Shown in pieces: positions 8,302 to 37,387 of a DNA stretch of 64,000 nucleotides. Source of the stretch: Escherichia coli (GTDB lineage Bacteria; Pseudomonadota; Gammaproteobacteria; Enterobacterales; Enterobacteriaceae); NCBI RefSeq assembly GCF_050920415.1, contig NZ_CP169309.1; one strand, 5' to 3'. A model generated the notes under the pieces. It was not told where the DNA came from and did not search any database. It was given only the letters and a program-made list of their open reading frames with translations. Made by a program: the position numbers and the translations under genes. The first letter of the stretch is position 1; every line of letters begins with the position of its first letter.

Positions 8302-9689
8302 CCACTCCAGTATGGCGTAACGATGATCTGGAAGGCGCTGTCATTGGCGCGTTTTTTCTGCGTGGGGCAGATCATGAAGTGATGGATATTCTGGCCACAC
8401 TGCCAGCGGACGTTTTTTCTGTACGAGCGTATAGGGATATCTACACAGGCATCTGCCGACAGGCTCGTGTTTCAGGTGTGATTGATCCTGTGCTGCTGTG
8501 TAATGAAATGCCGGAACTTGCTCCGGTGATTACTGATACCGGGCGTAAAACCTGGGTGAAGTCTTCACTGGAGCACTATGTTGCAGCGTTGCGGCGCAAT
8601 GCTGCATTGCGTGATGCAGAAAAAACACTGAATGAGGCGCTGCAGAAATTACGTGATGCGCATACCTGTGAAGCAGCTGAAGATGTCCTGAAGGATGCGC
8701 AGAACATGATGGCTTCATTGTCGACGGAAAAGGGCATTATTCAGCCGATACATATTGATGATGTGCTTCCGGAGGTGGTTGAGCGTGTTGAATGCCGGAA
8801 TCAGGGACTGGAGAAATCCAGAACGTTGATGACCGGTATTGAGGAGCTGGACGCAAAGACAGGTGGCATGGAGCCCGGCGACCTGGTGTTCATTGCGGCT
8901 CGTCCGTCAATGGGCAAAACCGAACTGGCGCTGGATATCATCGACAAGGTGACTGAGCAGGGGCATGGTGTTCTTCTGTTCACAATGGAAATGGCGAACA
9001 TCCAGATTGGTGAACGCATGGTATCTGCGGCTGGAGGAATGCCGGTATCACGCCTGAAATCTGTCACTCACTTTGAAGATGAAGACTGGGCGCGTTTCTC
9101 ACAAGGGGTGGGACGGATGACCGGTCGCAATATCTGGATGGTGGACCAGGCGAATCTGACCATTGATGAGATATGCGCAACAACGAAACACCACCTGATT
9201 AAACATCCGGAAACGGCGCTGGTGGTGGTTGATTATCTCGGGCTGATAAAAACCCGGAGCACGGGGCGTCATGACCTTGCCGTGGGTGAAATCTCAAAGG
9301 GGCTTAAAGGCCTGGCAAAATCCGGTGGTTTTCCGTTGATTGCGCTGAGCCAGCTCTCCCGCGGTGTGGAGTCCAGGCCCAATAAACGCCCCATGAACTC
9401 AGACCTGAAAAATTCCGGAGAAATAGAGGCGGATGCAGACATCATTCTGATGCTTTACAGGGATGAAGTGTACAACCCGGATACGCAGGCCAGGGGCATC
9501 GCAGAAATCAATATCACGAAACAACGTAACGGTTCTCTGGGGACAATTTACCGGCGTTTTTATAACGGACATTTTCTGCCTGTAGACCAGGAAAGCGCAC
9601 AGGTTCTTTCCACCCCAATGCAGCCGCCTCAGCCGCGCAGATACAGCAATAAACGAACCGACAGTAGTAAGATGGAGCGTTTCTTTTGA
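8298..9689 (+). CDS. DnaB-family replicative helicase
   Basis: RecA-like core with Walker A (ARPSMGKTELAL) and DnaB-type motifs (DYLGLI, ALSQLSRGVE). Confidence 0.85.
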   Translation: MTTPVWRNDDLEGAVIGAFFLRGADHEVMDILATLPADVFSVRAYRDIYTGICRQARVSGVIDPVLLCNEMPELAPVITDTGRKTWVKSSLEHYVAALRRNAALRDAEKTLNEALQKLRDAHTCEAAEDVLKDAQNMMASLSTEKGIIQPIHIDDVLPEVVERVECRNQGLEKSRTLMTGIEELDAKTGGMEPGDLVFIAARPSMGKTELALDIIDKVTEQGHGVLLFTMEMANIQIGERMVSAAGGMPVSRLKSVTHFEDEDWARFSQGVGRMTGRNIWMVDQANLTIDEICATTKHHLIKHPETALVVVDYLGLIKTRSTGRHDLAVGEISKGLKGLAKSGGFPLIALSQLSRGVESRPNKRPMNSDLKNSGEIEADADIILMLYRDEVYNPDTQARGIAEINITKQRNGSLGTIYRRFYNGHFLPVDQESAQVLSTPMQPPQPRRYSNKRTDSSKMERFF

Positions 9690-9943
9690 ACAACCAGACA
9701 ATGACTTTTACCCCTGAACAATTACGCAAACAGGCGCAGGAAATGCTGCGACAGGCGGAACAACTGGAAAAATCAGGCGTAACAAAAGATGCCATTCGTC
9801 GGGATATGGTACCCGCGCTCAGAGAACTGATGCAGGCAAAACACCGCGCACAAAAAGCGGTGGATGAGCTGGTGGATTGTGTGGCAGAGCTGGAAACAAA
9901 AGTTGGAAAATTTGAAAAACTGGTGCAGGAGGTACTGCGCTGA
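9686..9943 (+). CDS. Small hypothetical coiled-coil protein (probable start at ATG 9701)
   Basis: Track ORF between the helicase and the Q-like gene; no family recognised. Confidence 0.4.
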
Positions 9944-10308
9944 TGCGTGATATTCAGATGGTTCTTGAGCGTTGGGGGGCGTGGGTGGCAAATAACCACG
10001 AAGATGTTACCTGGTCGTCGATTGCTGCGGGATTCAAAGGACTGATTCCGTCAAAGGTTAAGTCACGTCCGCAATGTTGTGACGATGACGCGATGATCAT
10101 TTGTGGTTGCATGGCTCGTCTGAAAAAGAACAACCGTGACTTGCATGATCTGCTCGTGGATTATTACGTTGGGGGAATGACTTTTATGGCGCTTGCAAGG
10201 AAACATGGACGTTCAGATTGCTGGGTTGGTCGTTTGTTGCAAAAAGCAGAGGGGATCGTGGCTGGTATGTTAATGATGTTGGATGTCAAACTAGAGATGG
10301 AATATTAA
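9943..10308 (+). CDS. Late-gene antiterminator, Q-like (short QuuD-type)
   Basis: 121 aa; sequence ([24 protein letters not shown]...[20 protein letters not shown]) closely resembles what I recall of DLP12 QuuD; lies just upstream of the late/lysis region. Confidence 0.65.
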
Positions 10309-13457: not shown

Positions 13458-13520
13458 GTCACTGACCGGAACAGATAAACCTGTCCGTGGGCAGAAACCG
13501 ATAAATCCTGATAAATATCC

Positions 13521-14054
13521 ATGAACGCAAAAATCAGATACGGCCTGTCGGCTGCCGTTCTGGCACTGATTGCCGTCGGTGCTCCCGCGCCTGATATTCT
13601 CGACCAGTTTCTGGATGAAAAAGAAGGTAACCACACAACGGCATACCGCGATGGTTCCGGCATCTGGACCATCTGTCGGGGTGCCACGATGGTGGATGGA
13701 AAACCCGTTTTTCCCGGTATGAAACTGTCGAAGGAAAAATGCGACCAGGTTAACGCCATTGAACGTGATAAGGCGCTGGCATGGGTGGAGCGCAATATTA
13801 AAGTACCACTGACCGAACCACAGAAAGCGGGTATAGCGTCATTTTGTCCCTATAACATTGGCCCCGGTAAGTGTTTCCCGTCGACGTTTTATAAGCGGCT
13901 GAATGCCGGTGATCGTAAGGGTGCATGCGAGGCGATTCGCTGGTGGATAAAAGATGGTGGGCGCGATTGCCGCATACGTTCAAATAACTGCTATGGACAG
14001 GTTATTCGTCGTGACCAGGAAAGCGCATTAGCCTGTTGGGGGATAGATCAGTGA
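13521..14054 (+). CDS. SAR endolysin (GH24 T4-lysozyme-like with N-terminal signal-anchor-release segment)
   Basis: Hydrophobic N-terminus ([15 protein letters not shown]) then catalytic E-D-T region ([20 protein letters not shown]). Confidence 0.8.
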
Positions 14055-14515
14055 GCAGAGTCGCCGCGATTATTTATGCTCTGGTTATCTGCATCATCGT
14101 CTGCCTGTCGTGGGCGGTCAATCATTACCGTGATAACGCCATCGCCTACAAAGAACAGCGTGATAAAAAAGTCAGTGAGCTGAAGCAGGCGATCGCCACC
14201 ATCGCTGACATGCAGCAGCGTCAGCGTGATGTTGCTGCGCTCGATGCAAAGTACTCGAGAGAATTAGCCAATGCGAAAGCTGAAAATGAAACTCTGCGCG
14301 CTGATGTTGCCGCTGGTCGTCGTCGGTTGCACATCAAAGCAGTCTGTCAGTCAGTGCGTGAAGCCACCACCGCCTCCGGCGTGGATAATGCAACCAGCCC
14401 CCGACTGGCAGACACCGCTGAACGGGATTATTTCACCCTCAGAGAGCGGCTGATGACGATGCAGATGCAACTGGAAGGGGCACAGGAGTATATCCGCACT
14501 CAGTGCATTAAGTAG
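14051..14515 (+). CDS. Rz i-spanin
   Basis: GTG start overlapping the endolysin stop (GTGA); N-terminal TM ([19 protein letters not shown]) and coiled coils; closely resembles lambda Rz as recalled. Confidence 0.75.
14271..14453 (+). CDS. Rz1 o-spanin lipoprotein embedded in Rz (+1 frame)
   Basis: 60 aa with lipobox LPLVVVGC and PPPPP tract; near-identical to lambda Rz1 as recalled. Confidence 0.75.
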
Positions 14516-33792: not shown

Positions 33793-35883
33793 ATGGCAGT
33801 AAAGATTTCAGGTGTCCTGAAGGACGGAGCGGGTGAGCCTGTCGTAAACTGTGCGATTGAATTGCGTGCCAGAAGAACCAGTCCGACAGTTGTGGTTAAT
33901 ATTGTGGCAACCTGTCTTACGGGAAGTGATGGTGGGTATACTATTAATGCTGAGCCGGGATTTTATGATGTATTTTTGTCCCGCTCAGGGCATCCTCCTG
34001 TAAAGGCGGGGGAAATTTATGTTGCACCGACAGATGAGCCGGATACGCTGAATGCTTTTCTGGATGCACCAAAGGAGGGTGATTTACGCCCTGAGGTAAT
34101 GAAGCGTTTTGAGGAAATGATAAATACCGTTTTTCGCTTGTCTGAGCAGGTGGTCAGTGACAGGGAGAGAGCAGAAACAGCTGCTGATGATGCAATCAAT
34201 GCAGCAACATCTGCGGCGGTTAGTAAGGATGAGGCAGAAGAGCTAAAAAATCAGACACAGCAGAGCGCCGAAGCTGCAGCCGGAAACGCACAGCAGACGG
34301 CACAGGATGTGACGACAACCGCAACGGCCCGTGATGATGCGGAACGTTTTGCGGGTGAGGCAGAAAACAGCGCACAGTCATCAGGCACATCGCGGGATGA
34401 ATCAGTCGATGCCGCCGAACGTGCCCGCCTTTATCATAATGCCGCATCATCAGCTGCAACCAGCGCGGAAAATGCAGCAAATGCTGCACTCGGGCATGAA
34501 AATAACGCTGCCGAATACGCCCGACAGGCTAAAGACAGCCAGGATGCAGGTGCAGACAATGCGCAGGAAGCGAAACAGTACAGGGATGAGGCGCAGCAGA
34601 TAGTTGATGACCTGAATGCAACAAATGCCAGCACGACAGAAAAAGGTCTGGTGCAACTGTGTAGTGATACGGACAACGACAGCGATGAACTGGCTGCCAC
34701 GCCAAAGGCTGTCAAAGCCGTCATGGACGAAACGAAAACAAAAGCGCCACTGGACAGCCCGGCCTTCACCGGCACCCCAACCACCCCAACCCCACCGGAT
34801 GATGCCGCCGGTCTGGAAGCAGCGAACGCAGCGTTTGTGCGCAAACTGCTTGCTGCGCTGGTTGGCTCATCGCCGGAAGTTCTGGACACCCTGAACGAGC
34901 TGGCAGCGGCGCTGGGCAATGACCCGAACTTTGCGACGACAATCACAAACGCGCTGGCAGGCAAACAACCGCTTAATGACGTCTTAACGGCAATCAGCGC
35001 ACTGACGCAACGGGCAGATAATCTTCTGTACTTCAATACGGACGGGAATGCCTCACTGTCTCCGCTGTCAGAGAAGGCCCGCGCATTACTGGCGCATGAC
35101 ACGGCTGAAGCCATGCGCACGGAGCTTGAGCTGAACGCGGCTGCGACGATGGAACCCCAGAGTGATATCCGTGACCGCACACCGGGCAGGCTGGCCCTGT
35201 CCGGGATGTATGGGTTTGGACAGGCATTCACCAGCGCCGAAGCTCTGTCATTTAACGGACAGGCTGATTTCGTTATATGGCTGCAGACAGTCACCCCGGG
35301 GCGTTATGCGGTCAGTATTGCGGACTCCTCCACGCTGCTGAAGGGGACCACGAAATTTAACGGTATCATTGATGTGATGTGGTCACCGTCTGATAACGAC
35401 GAATCAGACACGGCGCGTAAATTCAAAACGCTGCTGTACTACAACCAGTATTACGAGGATGAGCACAGCATACATTGTATGCGTTATCGCTACAGTGGTA
35501 ACAGCTGGAATGCAACATCAAGCCTTATTGTGTATGACGGCAACTCCCTGGCATATCTGATGTCCTCAACCGCCGGTAATGGTCCGTTCTCATATTACAA
35601 ATACCCGGCCGTCGGTGTGCCGATAATGGCGGTATATCAGGGAGAAAGTTTTGGTGAAAATGCTTCTCTGGGACTCGGTGATACTGTGCCGGGTTCCCGT
35701 CTTGGTCCTCTGGCCATGAGTGCACAGGTTAGTGATACAGGGACATACGCATCCTCACCGCAGGTTGTGATTGGCGGTGCCGGTGAATACAACTTCCCCG
35801 GTCGTTACACGGCGCTTTCGGGCCTGGGTAACAATTATGGTACTCAGCGTGGCTTTATCGGTCTTTTTGTACGCATTGAGTAA
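33793..35883 (+). CDS. stf: Side tail fibre protein (lambda Stf-like)
   Basis: N-terminus MAVKISGVLKDGAGEPV as lambda Stf; Ala/Ser-rich repeats; conserved ...LAATPKAVK...NELAAALGNDP region. Confidence 0.85.
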   Translation: MAVKISGVLKDGAGEPVVNCAIELRARRTSPTVVVNIVATCLTGSDGGYTINAEPGFYDVFLSRSGHPPVKAGEIYVAPTDEPDTLNAFLDAPKEGDLRPEVMKRFEEMINTVFRLSEQVVSDRERAETAADDAINAATSAAVSKDEAEELKNQTQQSAEAAAGNAQQTAQDVTTTATARDDAERFAGEAENSAQSSGTSRDESVDAAERARLYHNAASSAATSAENAANAALGHENNAAEYARQAKDSQDAGADNAQEAKQYRDEAQQIVDDLNATNASTTEKGLVQLCSDTDNDSDELAATPKAVKAVMDETKTKAPLDSPAFTGTPTTPTPPDDAAGLEAANAAFVRKLLAALVGSSPEVLDTLNELAAALGNDPNFATTITNALAGKQPLNDVLTAISALTQRADNLLYFNTDGNASLSPLSEKARALLAHDTAEAMRTELELNAAATMEPQSDIRDRTPGRLALSGMYGFGQAFTSAEALSFNGQADFVIWLQTVTPGRYAVSIADSSTLLKGTTKFNGIIDVMWSPSDNDESDTARKFKTLLYYNQYYEDEHSIHCMRYRYSGNSWNATSSLIVYDGNSLAYLMSSTAGNGPFSYYKYPAVGVPIMAVYQGESFGENASLGLGDTVPGSRLGPLAMSAQVSDTGTYASSPQVVIGGAGEYNFPGRYTALSGLGNNYGTQRGFIGLFVRIE

Positions 35884-35897
35884 TGAGGAAATCAGGC

Positions 35898-36470
35898 ATG
35901 AAAATCAGAGCGGTGAAAGGCATCAGAAACGCACATTATCTTGAAAATGGTGCGGTTGACTGCGAGGTGTTATTTGAAGGTGAAACGGAGTTCGCCCTGT
36001 ATACTGCCATACAGGATGATATGGCCCCGACAGGCCAGCATGTCTGGCAGGAGCTGCAAAGCGGGAAATGGGGCGAAATCGCCCCGTTCACCGTCACGCC
36101 GGAACTTATTGCAGCGGCAAAGGATGCCAAAAGGCGGGAAATTGAGGCATGGCGCGACAGTCAGGAAAACGTTGAGTTTATTTTCACGTTTGATGGCCGT
36201 CGTTTTGATGGCGGAAAAACCTCGCAGTCACGCCTTGCGCCCGTGGTTGCAACAGCGCAGGCCGGACTGCTTCCGGAGGGTTTTTTCTGGACTGATGCGG
36301 ATAATAACAACGTCGTACTGACCAGGGAGAAACTTATTGCGCTGAACGATGCCATGATGGTGGCCATGGTGGCGGAGGGCTTTAAAATCCACGAACGCCA
36401 GCGCGAGATGAAGGAACAACTGAATAATCTGAATGACTTGGCTTCAATTCGAGCGCTTGACGTTACGTAA
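35898..36470 (+). CDS. Tail-fibre-associated protein in the Tfa position (Tfa signature not recognised)
   Basis: Directly after stf where the fibre assembly chaperone is expected; I cannot see the usual Tfa C-terminal pattern. Confidence 0.4.
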   Translation: MKIRAVKGIRNAHYLENGAVDCEVLFEGETEFALYTAIQDDMAPTGQHVWQELQSGKWGEIAPFTVTPELIAAAKDAKRREIEAWRDSQENVEFIFTFDGRRFDGGKTSQSRLAPVVATAQAGLLPEGFFWTDADNNNVVLTREKLIALNDAMMVAMVAEGFKIHERQREMKEQLNNLNDLASIRALDVT

Positions 36471-36540
36471 TAAAAATCACTGATATGCCAGCCCCTTGTA
36501 AAGATATTGATCAGGGTTGTTTTGATGTGAATTAGATTTA

Positions 36541-36650
36541 CATGGGGTGCTTTGGGGCATGTATGGGACAGAAATGTCTGTTTTGGGACATTTTGGGGCA
36601 TGGTTGGGACACTATAACACATACGAACTTAACCGAATTTCGTATGGTGT
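36541..36650. repeat. Repeat cluster at the prophage right end (TTGGGGCATG x2, TGGGACA x3, plus CATACGAA/TTCGTATG inverted repeat)
   Basis: Short direct repeats between the last phage gene and yecD; consistent with attR arm-type recombinase/IHF sites. Confidence 0.4.
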
Positions 36651-36820
36651 TAATTTTTAACGTGTTGAATACACTAGAGAAAGCGAATGCTCTTGGGCGT
36701 TCTTTAGTGATTTTTAAAATAGTCCTGTCATGCAGTTAAAGTGGCGGGCATACTCTTCAAGGCTGGTGATCCCCAACCGCACCCATTTAGGATGCGACCA
36801 TTGTGGCAGACCGATGTAAA

Positions 36821-37387
36821 TCATAATGCGTTGAGGATCTCTTCCACACTGCGCACACGGGCGATGCGTGGGTAGATATGGTTGATGCTGTTATTATGCT
36901 GCTCAGCGCTGGCGGCGCTGCAGGCGTCTTCGGCAATCACCAGATTAAAACCAAGTTCCCAGGCATTGCGGGCGGTGGATTCAACACCGATATTGGTCGA
37001 GATCCCACATAATACTATTGTATCGATACCCCGGCGGCGTAATTGCAACTCCAGATCCGTACCGTAAAACGCACCCCATTGACGTTTGATGATTTCAATA
37101 TCGCTGTCTGTTGCACCCAATGCAGCAGGATGTTGCCACCAATTTTCGGGCAACACTTTAGCGGGGGAGGGGGCATCAACCGGCTGTTTTAATGCTTCGG
37201 CGTAATCGGTAGACCAACCAACGCGCACCAGAAACACGGGCTGACCGTTCGCGCGAAATTTCGCCGCCAGCTTCCCTGCTCGATTAACCACCTCATCGGC
37301 AGTATGAGGACCACCGGCAAAAGGTAAGATGCCTTCTTGTAAGTCAATTACCACCAGCGCAGTGGTATTAGCATTCAGTTCAAGCAT
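36821..37387 (-). CDS. yecD: Isochorismatase-family hydrolase YecD
   Basis: 188 aa recognised as E. coli YecD; divergent from aspS as in the chromosome. Confidence 0.9.

Follow-up and report, generated by a model that had tools for sequence, protein, structure and literature searches.

A probable lambda-like attR site of a phiP27-type prophage inside yecE of Escherichia coli

The prophage in this stretch of the E. coli chromosome ends inside yecE, and we consider it probable, at roughly 0.85, that positions 36548-36748 of the window (the whole 64,000-nucleotide stretch that was analysed) are the attR site (P-O-B') of a lambdoid prophage using a phiP27-type tyrosine integrase, with arm, core and IHF roles as in lambda. 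Phage gives way to host DNA 85 bp left of the yecD stop, and yecE is split, not missing. A first-pass annotation of the same DNA had taken the interval between the last phage gene and yecD for the right boundary (attR) of a prophage at this locus, a reading that is supported. It had further placed integration downstream of yecD, at the usual position of yecE; the yecD/yecE locus stands, but the core is inside yecE, of which codons 1-31 remain.

As had been stated there, the last phage gene ends at 36470 (open reading frame 35883-36470, plus strand) and yecD stops at 36821 (stop codon 36821-36823). The elements at and around the junction are these:

35883..36470, plus strand: last prophage gene, tail-fibre-associated (PGAP: DUF4376); matches PHROG tail-fibre families, E 1.9e-81; outside the att site
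36471..36547, no strand: lineage-specific phage spacer from the last gene to the att arm; absent from other phages with the same att module
36548..36732, no strand: P arm of attP, which since integration forms the phage-derived side of attR; kept as a unit in the phiP27 attR (88.9% identity) and contiguous with core, P' arm and int in CharmingMan
36724..36732, no strand: phage core-type site C, CCTGTCATG, from the attR/attB/attL alignment and attP reconstruction; inverted partner of C' (CATGACGGG) in attP
36733..36739, no strand: overlap (crossover) region CAGTTAA, common to attR, attL and attB; inside the phiP27 11-bp att and the published 21-bp att
36740..36748, no strand: bacterial core-type site B', AGTGGCGGG, identical to K-12 yecE
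36732..36824, minus strand: 5' fragment of yecE, codons 1-31; its translation equals K-12 YecE residues 1-31
36821..37387, minus strand: yecD, intact chromosomal flank; stop at 36821-36823

The position of the crossover comes from a three-way alignment of the window attR, the empty K-12 attB and the attL of a related genome, in which CAGTTAA, at 36733-36739 and within yecE codons 29-31, is the only stretch that all of them share; this puts the prophage within codons 29-31 of yecE. The heptamer is shared by the window attR, the K-12 attB and the attL of two related genomes. Alignment with an empty locus, which the first-pass annotation had proposed as a check together with a search for a core shared with the left prophage end, thus gave a clear outcome on both counts: K-12 yecE runs continuously through the junction locus and lacks 36471-36732, and CAGTTAA recurs at the left end of a relative. 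On the host side, the minus-strand translation from 36824 matches K-12 YecE for its first 31 residues and diverges afterwards, the yecE start overlaps the yecD stop (ATGA), and a RefSeq genome that is 100% identical over 36300-37000 has, at the positions corresponding to 36723-36824, a truncated DUF72 gene (yecE) that PGAP annotates as a pseudogene. On the phage side, phage DNA within the interval is limited to 36471-36732, and the att arm common to relatives to 36548-36732.

The window starts inside the early region of the prophage, and attL and int lie outside it; judging from relatives, attL would be found about 2.7 kb to the left of window position 1. In NZ_CP169399.1, in which attR is 100% identical and window positions 1-2500 are matched at 100% identity, and in NZ_AP042598.1 (OkiPb01701), in which attR is 98.6% identical, the order at the left end is yecN, the yecE 3' part, core, integrase and excisionase. 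In these two genomes, with 98.6-100% identical attR, the left end is thus also in yecE and not at another locus, which the first-pass annotation had named as a refutation of its reading; the left junction in a related genome reads CCACG CAGTTAA CATGACGGG. The integrase, taken from a genome with an identical attR and encoded outside the window, has 97% amino-acid identity to phiP27 Int over 436 residues. Read from related genomes, Int carries the Pfam domains Arm-DNA-bind_2 at residues 7-70 (E 2.4e-23) and Phage_integrase at residues 202-395, and the adjacent 78-aa protein is a DUF1233/PHROG excisionase; int and xis are both full-length in relatives.

The yecE 3' part at attL is called by PGAP as an intact 256-aa DUF72 protein and not as a pseudogene (9398-10168 in the sequence from NZ_CP169399.1; 91-861 in a further left-end sequence). 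The first ~15 codons of this open reading frame are phage DNA and overlap the int 3' end on the same strand, so that read-through from int could express an N-terminally altered YecE.

We reconstructed attP by joining the phage sides of attR and attL. The product, CCTGTCATG CAGTTAA CATGACGGG, has a 7-bp overlap between inverted core-type sites, and attB, CCCTCCACG CAGTTAA AGTGGCGGG, has inverted core-type sites flanking the overlap in the same manner, a description of sequence symmetry only. P arm, core, P' arm and int follow one another without interruption, in the attP configuration, in CharmingMan, a free phage genome, and in several IMG/VR contigs. The short repeats of the interval, whose presence in the attP of an excised phage the first-pass annotation had made a test of its reading, are found in the contiguous attP of free phage genomes.

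These repeats had been described as TTGGGGCATG twice and TGGGACA three times, and this holds, with starts at 36552 and 36593 for the former and at 36564, 36584 and 36605 for the latter. They are one motif, TGGGRCA: TGGGGCA is a one-base variant of TGGGACA, and therefore the two kinds of repeat amount to five copies of TGGGRCA, all on one strand, with start-to-start spacings of 11, 20, 10 and 11 bp. A 20-nt composite unit, TTTGGGGCATGnnTGGGACA, occurs twice. The conservation of each copy was followed in P arms gathered by a conserved-block pattern search, which yielded 55 IMG/VR loci and from them 47 distinct P arms; collected in this way, the 47 are one family and not independent samples.

36553..36559 (-183 to -177 from the core centre), plus strand: putative arm-type site a, TGGGGCA; exact TGGGRCA in 43/47 P arms
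36564..36570, plus strand: putative arm-type site b, TGGGACA; exact in 42/47 and within one mismatch in 46/47; forms a doublet with a, 11 bp apart
36584..36590, plus strand: arm-type-like site c, TGGGACA; exact in 17/47, deleted in 16/47 including phi80-type copies
36594..36600, plus strand: putative arm-type site d, TGGGGCA; exact in 46/47
36605..36611, plus strand: putative arm-type site e, TGGGACA; exact in 35/47 and within one mismatch in 47/47; forms a doublet with d, 11 bp apart

Throughout the 47 P arms TGGGRCA is always on one strand, with none on the other, and TGGGGCA is a common variant; site c is probably dispensable, given its pattern of loss. The motif is equally regular in the P' arm, where a TGGGRCA doublet stands at +68/+79 in 10/10 P' arms, one of them otherwise dissimilar and with its doublet at +67/+78. 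This doublet falls in the last codons of int, its two copies in different reading frames, and the residues encoded there differ among relatives (VPMMSH vs APQMPQ), which places the constraint on the DNA and not on the protein. TGGGRCA is unrelated to the core-type sites. As judged by sequence, a motif that is present in both arms and distinct from the core sites is the signature of a heterobivalent, lambda-like integrase, and we regard the TGGGRCA repeats as very probably the arm-binding sites of the integrase. The proposal of the first-pass annotation that the interval fits arm-type sites for integrase and host factors is likewise favoured by the conservation of the motif and by the arm-binding domain of Int. 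At 36567-36578, following arm site b, stands a small inverted repeat, GACA-GAAA-TGTC; phi80-type arms have GGCA-TAAA-TGCC there, tracking the A/G variant of the arm motif, and the feature is inconsistent across all relatives.

Between the repeats and the core, the P arm, which is carried by ~324/5426 complete E. coli genomes, contains three further elements:

36620..36646 (-116 to -90), no strand: conserved palindrome CATACGAA-N11-TTCGTATG; half-sites 36620-36627 and 36639-36646
36658..36670 (-78 to -66), minus strand: IHF-consensus site ATTCAACACGTTA; one mismatch to WATCAANNNNTTR
36687..36720 (-49 to -16), no strand: 34-bp block ATGCTCTTGGGCGTTCTTTAGTGATTTTTAAAAT, nearly invariant, beside the core; the most conserved stretch in a BLAST-derived alignment of nine arms

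The inverted repeat noted at first pass is indeed present, as CATACGAA at 36620-36627 and TTCGTATG at 36639-36646, with a spacer of 11 nt instead of the 13 that had been given. A candidate IHF site matching WATCAANNNNTTR with at most one mismatch occurs at the same position in 41/47 P arms, against a background of 0.9 per kb, and a candidate IHF consensus match lies at +23 to +35 in 9/10 P' arms. The 34-bp block served as the search pattern for the IMG/VR arm set, and its conservation in that set is by construction; that Xis or a host factor binds it is a guess from position alone. Visual comparison of the Fis and CRP consensus sequences with the palindrome and with the invariant block gave no convincing match. 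A promoter scan returned a single weak promoter-like site, inside the tail gene. A 65-aa open reading frame at 36542-36739 (plus strand), homologous to 'L58' of phiP27, has no PHROG match and contains stops in CharmingMan, and was treated as a repeat artefact.

Homology with phiP27, CharmingMan, the phi80-type scars described below and other yecE prophages begins at 36548-36551, just before the first repeat. The spacer at 36471-36547 contains short inverted matches, TAAAAATCACT/AGTGATTTTTA (11/11), TATGCCAGCCCCTT/B' region (12/14) and GATTTACATGGG/yecE start (11/12), which are not collinear with yecE and are possibly chance or else a relic. Relative to NZ_CP169399.1, the best-matching genome, the prophage of the window is a mosaic:

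1-5432: 99.7% identity to NZ_CP169399.1
6271-9947: 94.6% identity
beyond 9947: divergent, with only a short 85% match at 13496-14059
36300-37000: 100% identity

The prophage in positions 1-8000 of the strain 100117 sequence, which has the same att arm from 36548 and the same yecE site, carries a different, myovirus-like tail module (baseplate J/gp47, GP46, baseplate V). The int/att module passes between phage backbones that are unrelated.

Several other readings of the interval deserve to be weighed. That it might be ordinary chromosome with repeats arisen by chance is suggested by the count of TGGGACA over the window, which equals expectation (8 matches vs 8.0 expected). The distribution of those matches tells otherwise: three of the eight fall within 48 bp, all four TTGGGRCA of the 64-kb window fall within 60 bp, and among 300 first-order Markov simulations of the window, our null for clustering, none reached three TGGGACA in 60 bp or five WTGGGRCA in 70 bp, the maximum being two. 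With yecE continuous in K-12, where 36471-36732 are missing, and with the interval segment present in phage genomes, we give this reading almost no weight. The repeats might instead bind the excisionase or another directionality factor, and not the arm-binding domain of integrase, since direct repeats in the P arm, in tandem and helically spaced, resemble the Xis sites of lambda as they are generally known. It is general knowledge too, however, that the Xis sites of lambda are confined to the P arm and its Int arm sites are found in both arms, and here the doublet is conserved in the P' arm as well (+68/+79, 10/10 relatives); Int, moreover, has an arm-DNA-binding domain needing such sites. We therefore hold binding by a directionality factor to be quite unlikely and retain the integrase as the protein that very probably recognizes TGGGRCA.

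The palindrome is open to a reading as an RNA hairpin that closes the int transcript at its 3' end, either as a terminator or as a sib-like retroregulator, and that integration severs from int. In attP it would follow the int stop by ~115-140 nt, on the same strand as int; complementarity holds in 94% of pair cells, with compensatory T:A to C:G changes at two pairs (27 distinct variants), pairing values reached by only 1/500 shuffles; and as RNA it folds at -11.4 kcal/mol (z -3.7), more stable than shuffles on either strand (z about -3.5). Yet the stem is 8 bp with a loop of 11 nt, the stem being too short for RNase III by general knowledge, no U-tract follows on either strand, the scan for terminators found none there, and an Rfam search returned nothing relevant. 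Several relatives, furthermore, break strict complementarity and keep the half-site consensus (YR)3GAA, which fits a symmetric site at the DNA level better, and we think a hairpin improbable. A symmetric protein site is favoured; an excisionase or accessory-factor site is possible because the palindrome lies between the arm sites and the IHF site, this being a guess from position alone. A broader proposal, that attP in the Arm-DNA-bind_2 family is organised unlike that of lambda, with three TGGGRCA doublets, a compensating palindrome and the 34-bp block, the latter two serving uncharacterised control by the DUF1233 excisionase or host factors or acting as a DNA or RNA hairpin signal, and not being plain equivalents of the X and F sites of lambda, seems to us doubtful, if less so than the hairpin by itself. 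Finally, the prophage could be a cryptic remnant that no longer excises, with att sites intact in sequence and arm sites that are relics. The version in the nearest genome, NZ_CP169399.1, has an IS66 element and several frameshifted lysis genes, and many prophages at such sites are defective (PMC8112680); the window version is free of these lesions and its late region has long intact open reading frames, the attR elements match the family consensus, and int and xis are full-length in relatives. Such a state is a real if minority prospect, and it bears on current activity and not on sequence identity, for which an attR with lambda-like roles remains our preferred reading.

A close precedent is phiP27, the Stx2e phage (AJ298298/NC_003356), for which we took the att sites from the GenBank att features. 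The target yecE and the core are the same, CAGTTAA being within its annotated 11-bp attL/attR, CACGCAGTTAA; in a search against phage genomes the int side of att is 97.8% identical; and in the P arm, 88.9% identical, the arm motifs, the palindrome and the conserved block are the same. The two differ in that phiP27 has another tail/late region and carries stx2e, whereas the present prophage is a lambda-like mosaic with no stx noted in the part of the window that was examined. The identity between attL and attR is 8 bp here (GCAGTTAA) as opposed to 11 bp in phiP27, because the P arm here has TCATG and not TCACG. More widely, both Stx and non-Stx phages use yecE as an integration hot spot, and the 21-bp att of phages that integrate there, GTCATGCAGTTAAAGTGGCGG (Nakamura et al. 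2021, PMC8112680), matches window positions 36727-36747 exactly. The same study confirmed the attP of related yecE phages by PCR and defined both the core identity and a yecE-derived secondary attB ('attB-in-PP_1') inside PPompW prophages (PMC8112680); the term 'arm-type' does not occur in it.

Some phages that carry this module do not use it as a live junction. Internal attR-like scars in phi80, mEp237, P-EibC and PPompW comprise the same P arm, core and yecE 5' fragment, with 78-91% identity to the window from 36551 onward, but sit inside the phage genomes beside dinI/msgA or tail genes and are not live chromosome junctions; phi80 itself integrates elsewhere via its own int and attP. In the extracted sequences the scars occupy 2471-2961 (phi80, JX871397), 401-891 (mEp237), 401-995 (P-EibC) and 401-668 (PPompW). 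Three of them also include the yecD 3' end, ~230 bp of it in phi80 and mEp237 and at least 320 bp in P-EibC, and the phi80 record annotates only the DUF72 fragment, leaving the yecD piece without annotation. The scars look like transduced host DNA gained by aberrant excision from yecE. IMG/VR also contains PPompW-type scars with another phage integrated, in which the P' arm beyond CAGTTAA is unrelated yet has a TGGGGCA/TGGGACA doublet at +67/+78; these loci match the prophage-in-prophage integration reported in PMC8112680.

The layout of lambda, as known in general terms, supplies the frame for the roles assigned above. Common to both are a 7-bp overlap between inverted core sites; arm repeats that are present in both arms and unlike the core sites; a tandem arrangement of P' sites, roughly from +55 to +85; candidate IHF sites that separate the core from the arm sites to either side; genes for Int and Xis next to the P' arm; and an N-terminal arm-binding domain in Int. 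In contrast to lambda, the motif here is TGGGRCA and the arm sites form three doublets, of which P has two and P' one, with the P' sites inside the coding end of int; the arm-binding domain is of another Pfam family (Arm-DNA-bind_2), Xis is of the DUF1233 type, and Int itself is distant (E 0.0076 to the lambda Int structure 1Z1B). The palindrome and the 34-bp invariant block have no obvious lambda counterpart. Our literature search returned no paper combining 'arm-type' with 'yecE' and none describing a three-doublet attP organisation.

Taken together, the observed elements, namely the junction, the shared core, the conservation of the motif and the integrase and excisionase domains, lend themselves to a scheme in which the assignment of proteins to sites and the continued excision of the prophage are what we infer. 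Int would exchange strands between attP and the yecE attB within the 7-bp overlap CAGTTAA. The P arm would contribute two conserved TGGGRCA doublets (a/b and d/e) and a probably dispensable fifth copy, c, and the P' arm, now at attL, a third doublet. By the lambda paradigm, the N-terminal domain of Int would bind TGGGRCA and its catalytic domain the core sites, while IHF would bend the P arm at 36658-36670 and the P' arm at +23 to +35, and arm-bound Int could in this way reach the core. Excision would call for attR to pair with attL, aided by the adjacent DUF1233-type excisionase; on the P arm this protein probably binds the stretch that separates the arm sites from the core, with the palindrome (36620-36646), the block (36687-36720) or both as its target.

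For annotation, the base-pair placement fixes the right boundary of the prophage at 36733-36739 and shows yecE to be disrupted, not absent; the attR, attL and attP sequences are also ready for primer design. In E. coli, Shiga-toxin phages and lambdoid phages of other kinds have one of their main integration hot spots here, and the prophage belongs to the known phiP27-type module for integration into yecE, has a lambda-like layout, and as such is biologically ordinary. Perhaps the arm map is undescribed, yet it would be an expected feature of a known system, and current understanding is unchanged. What the comparison of arm sites, IHF sites, palindrome and block adds is modest, though it could be of use in designing a minimal attP or in work on the specificity of the integrase.
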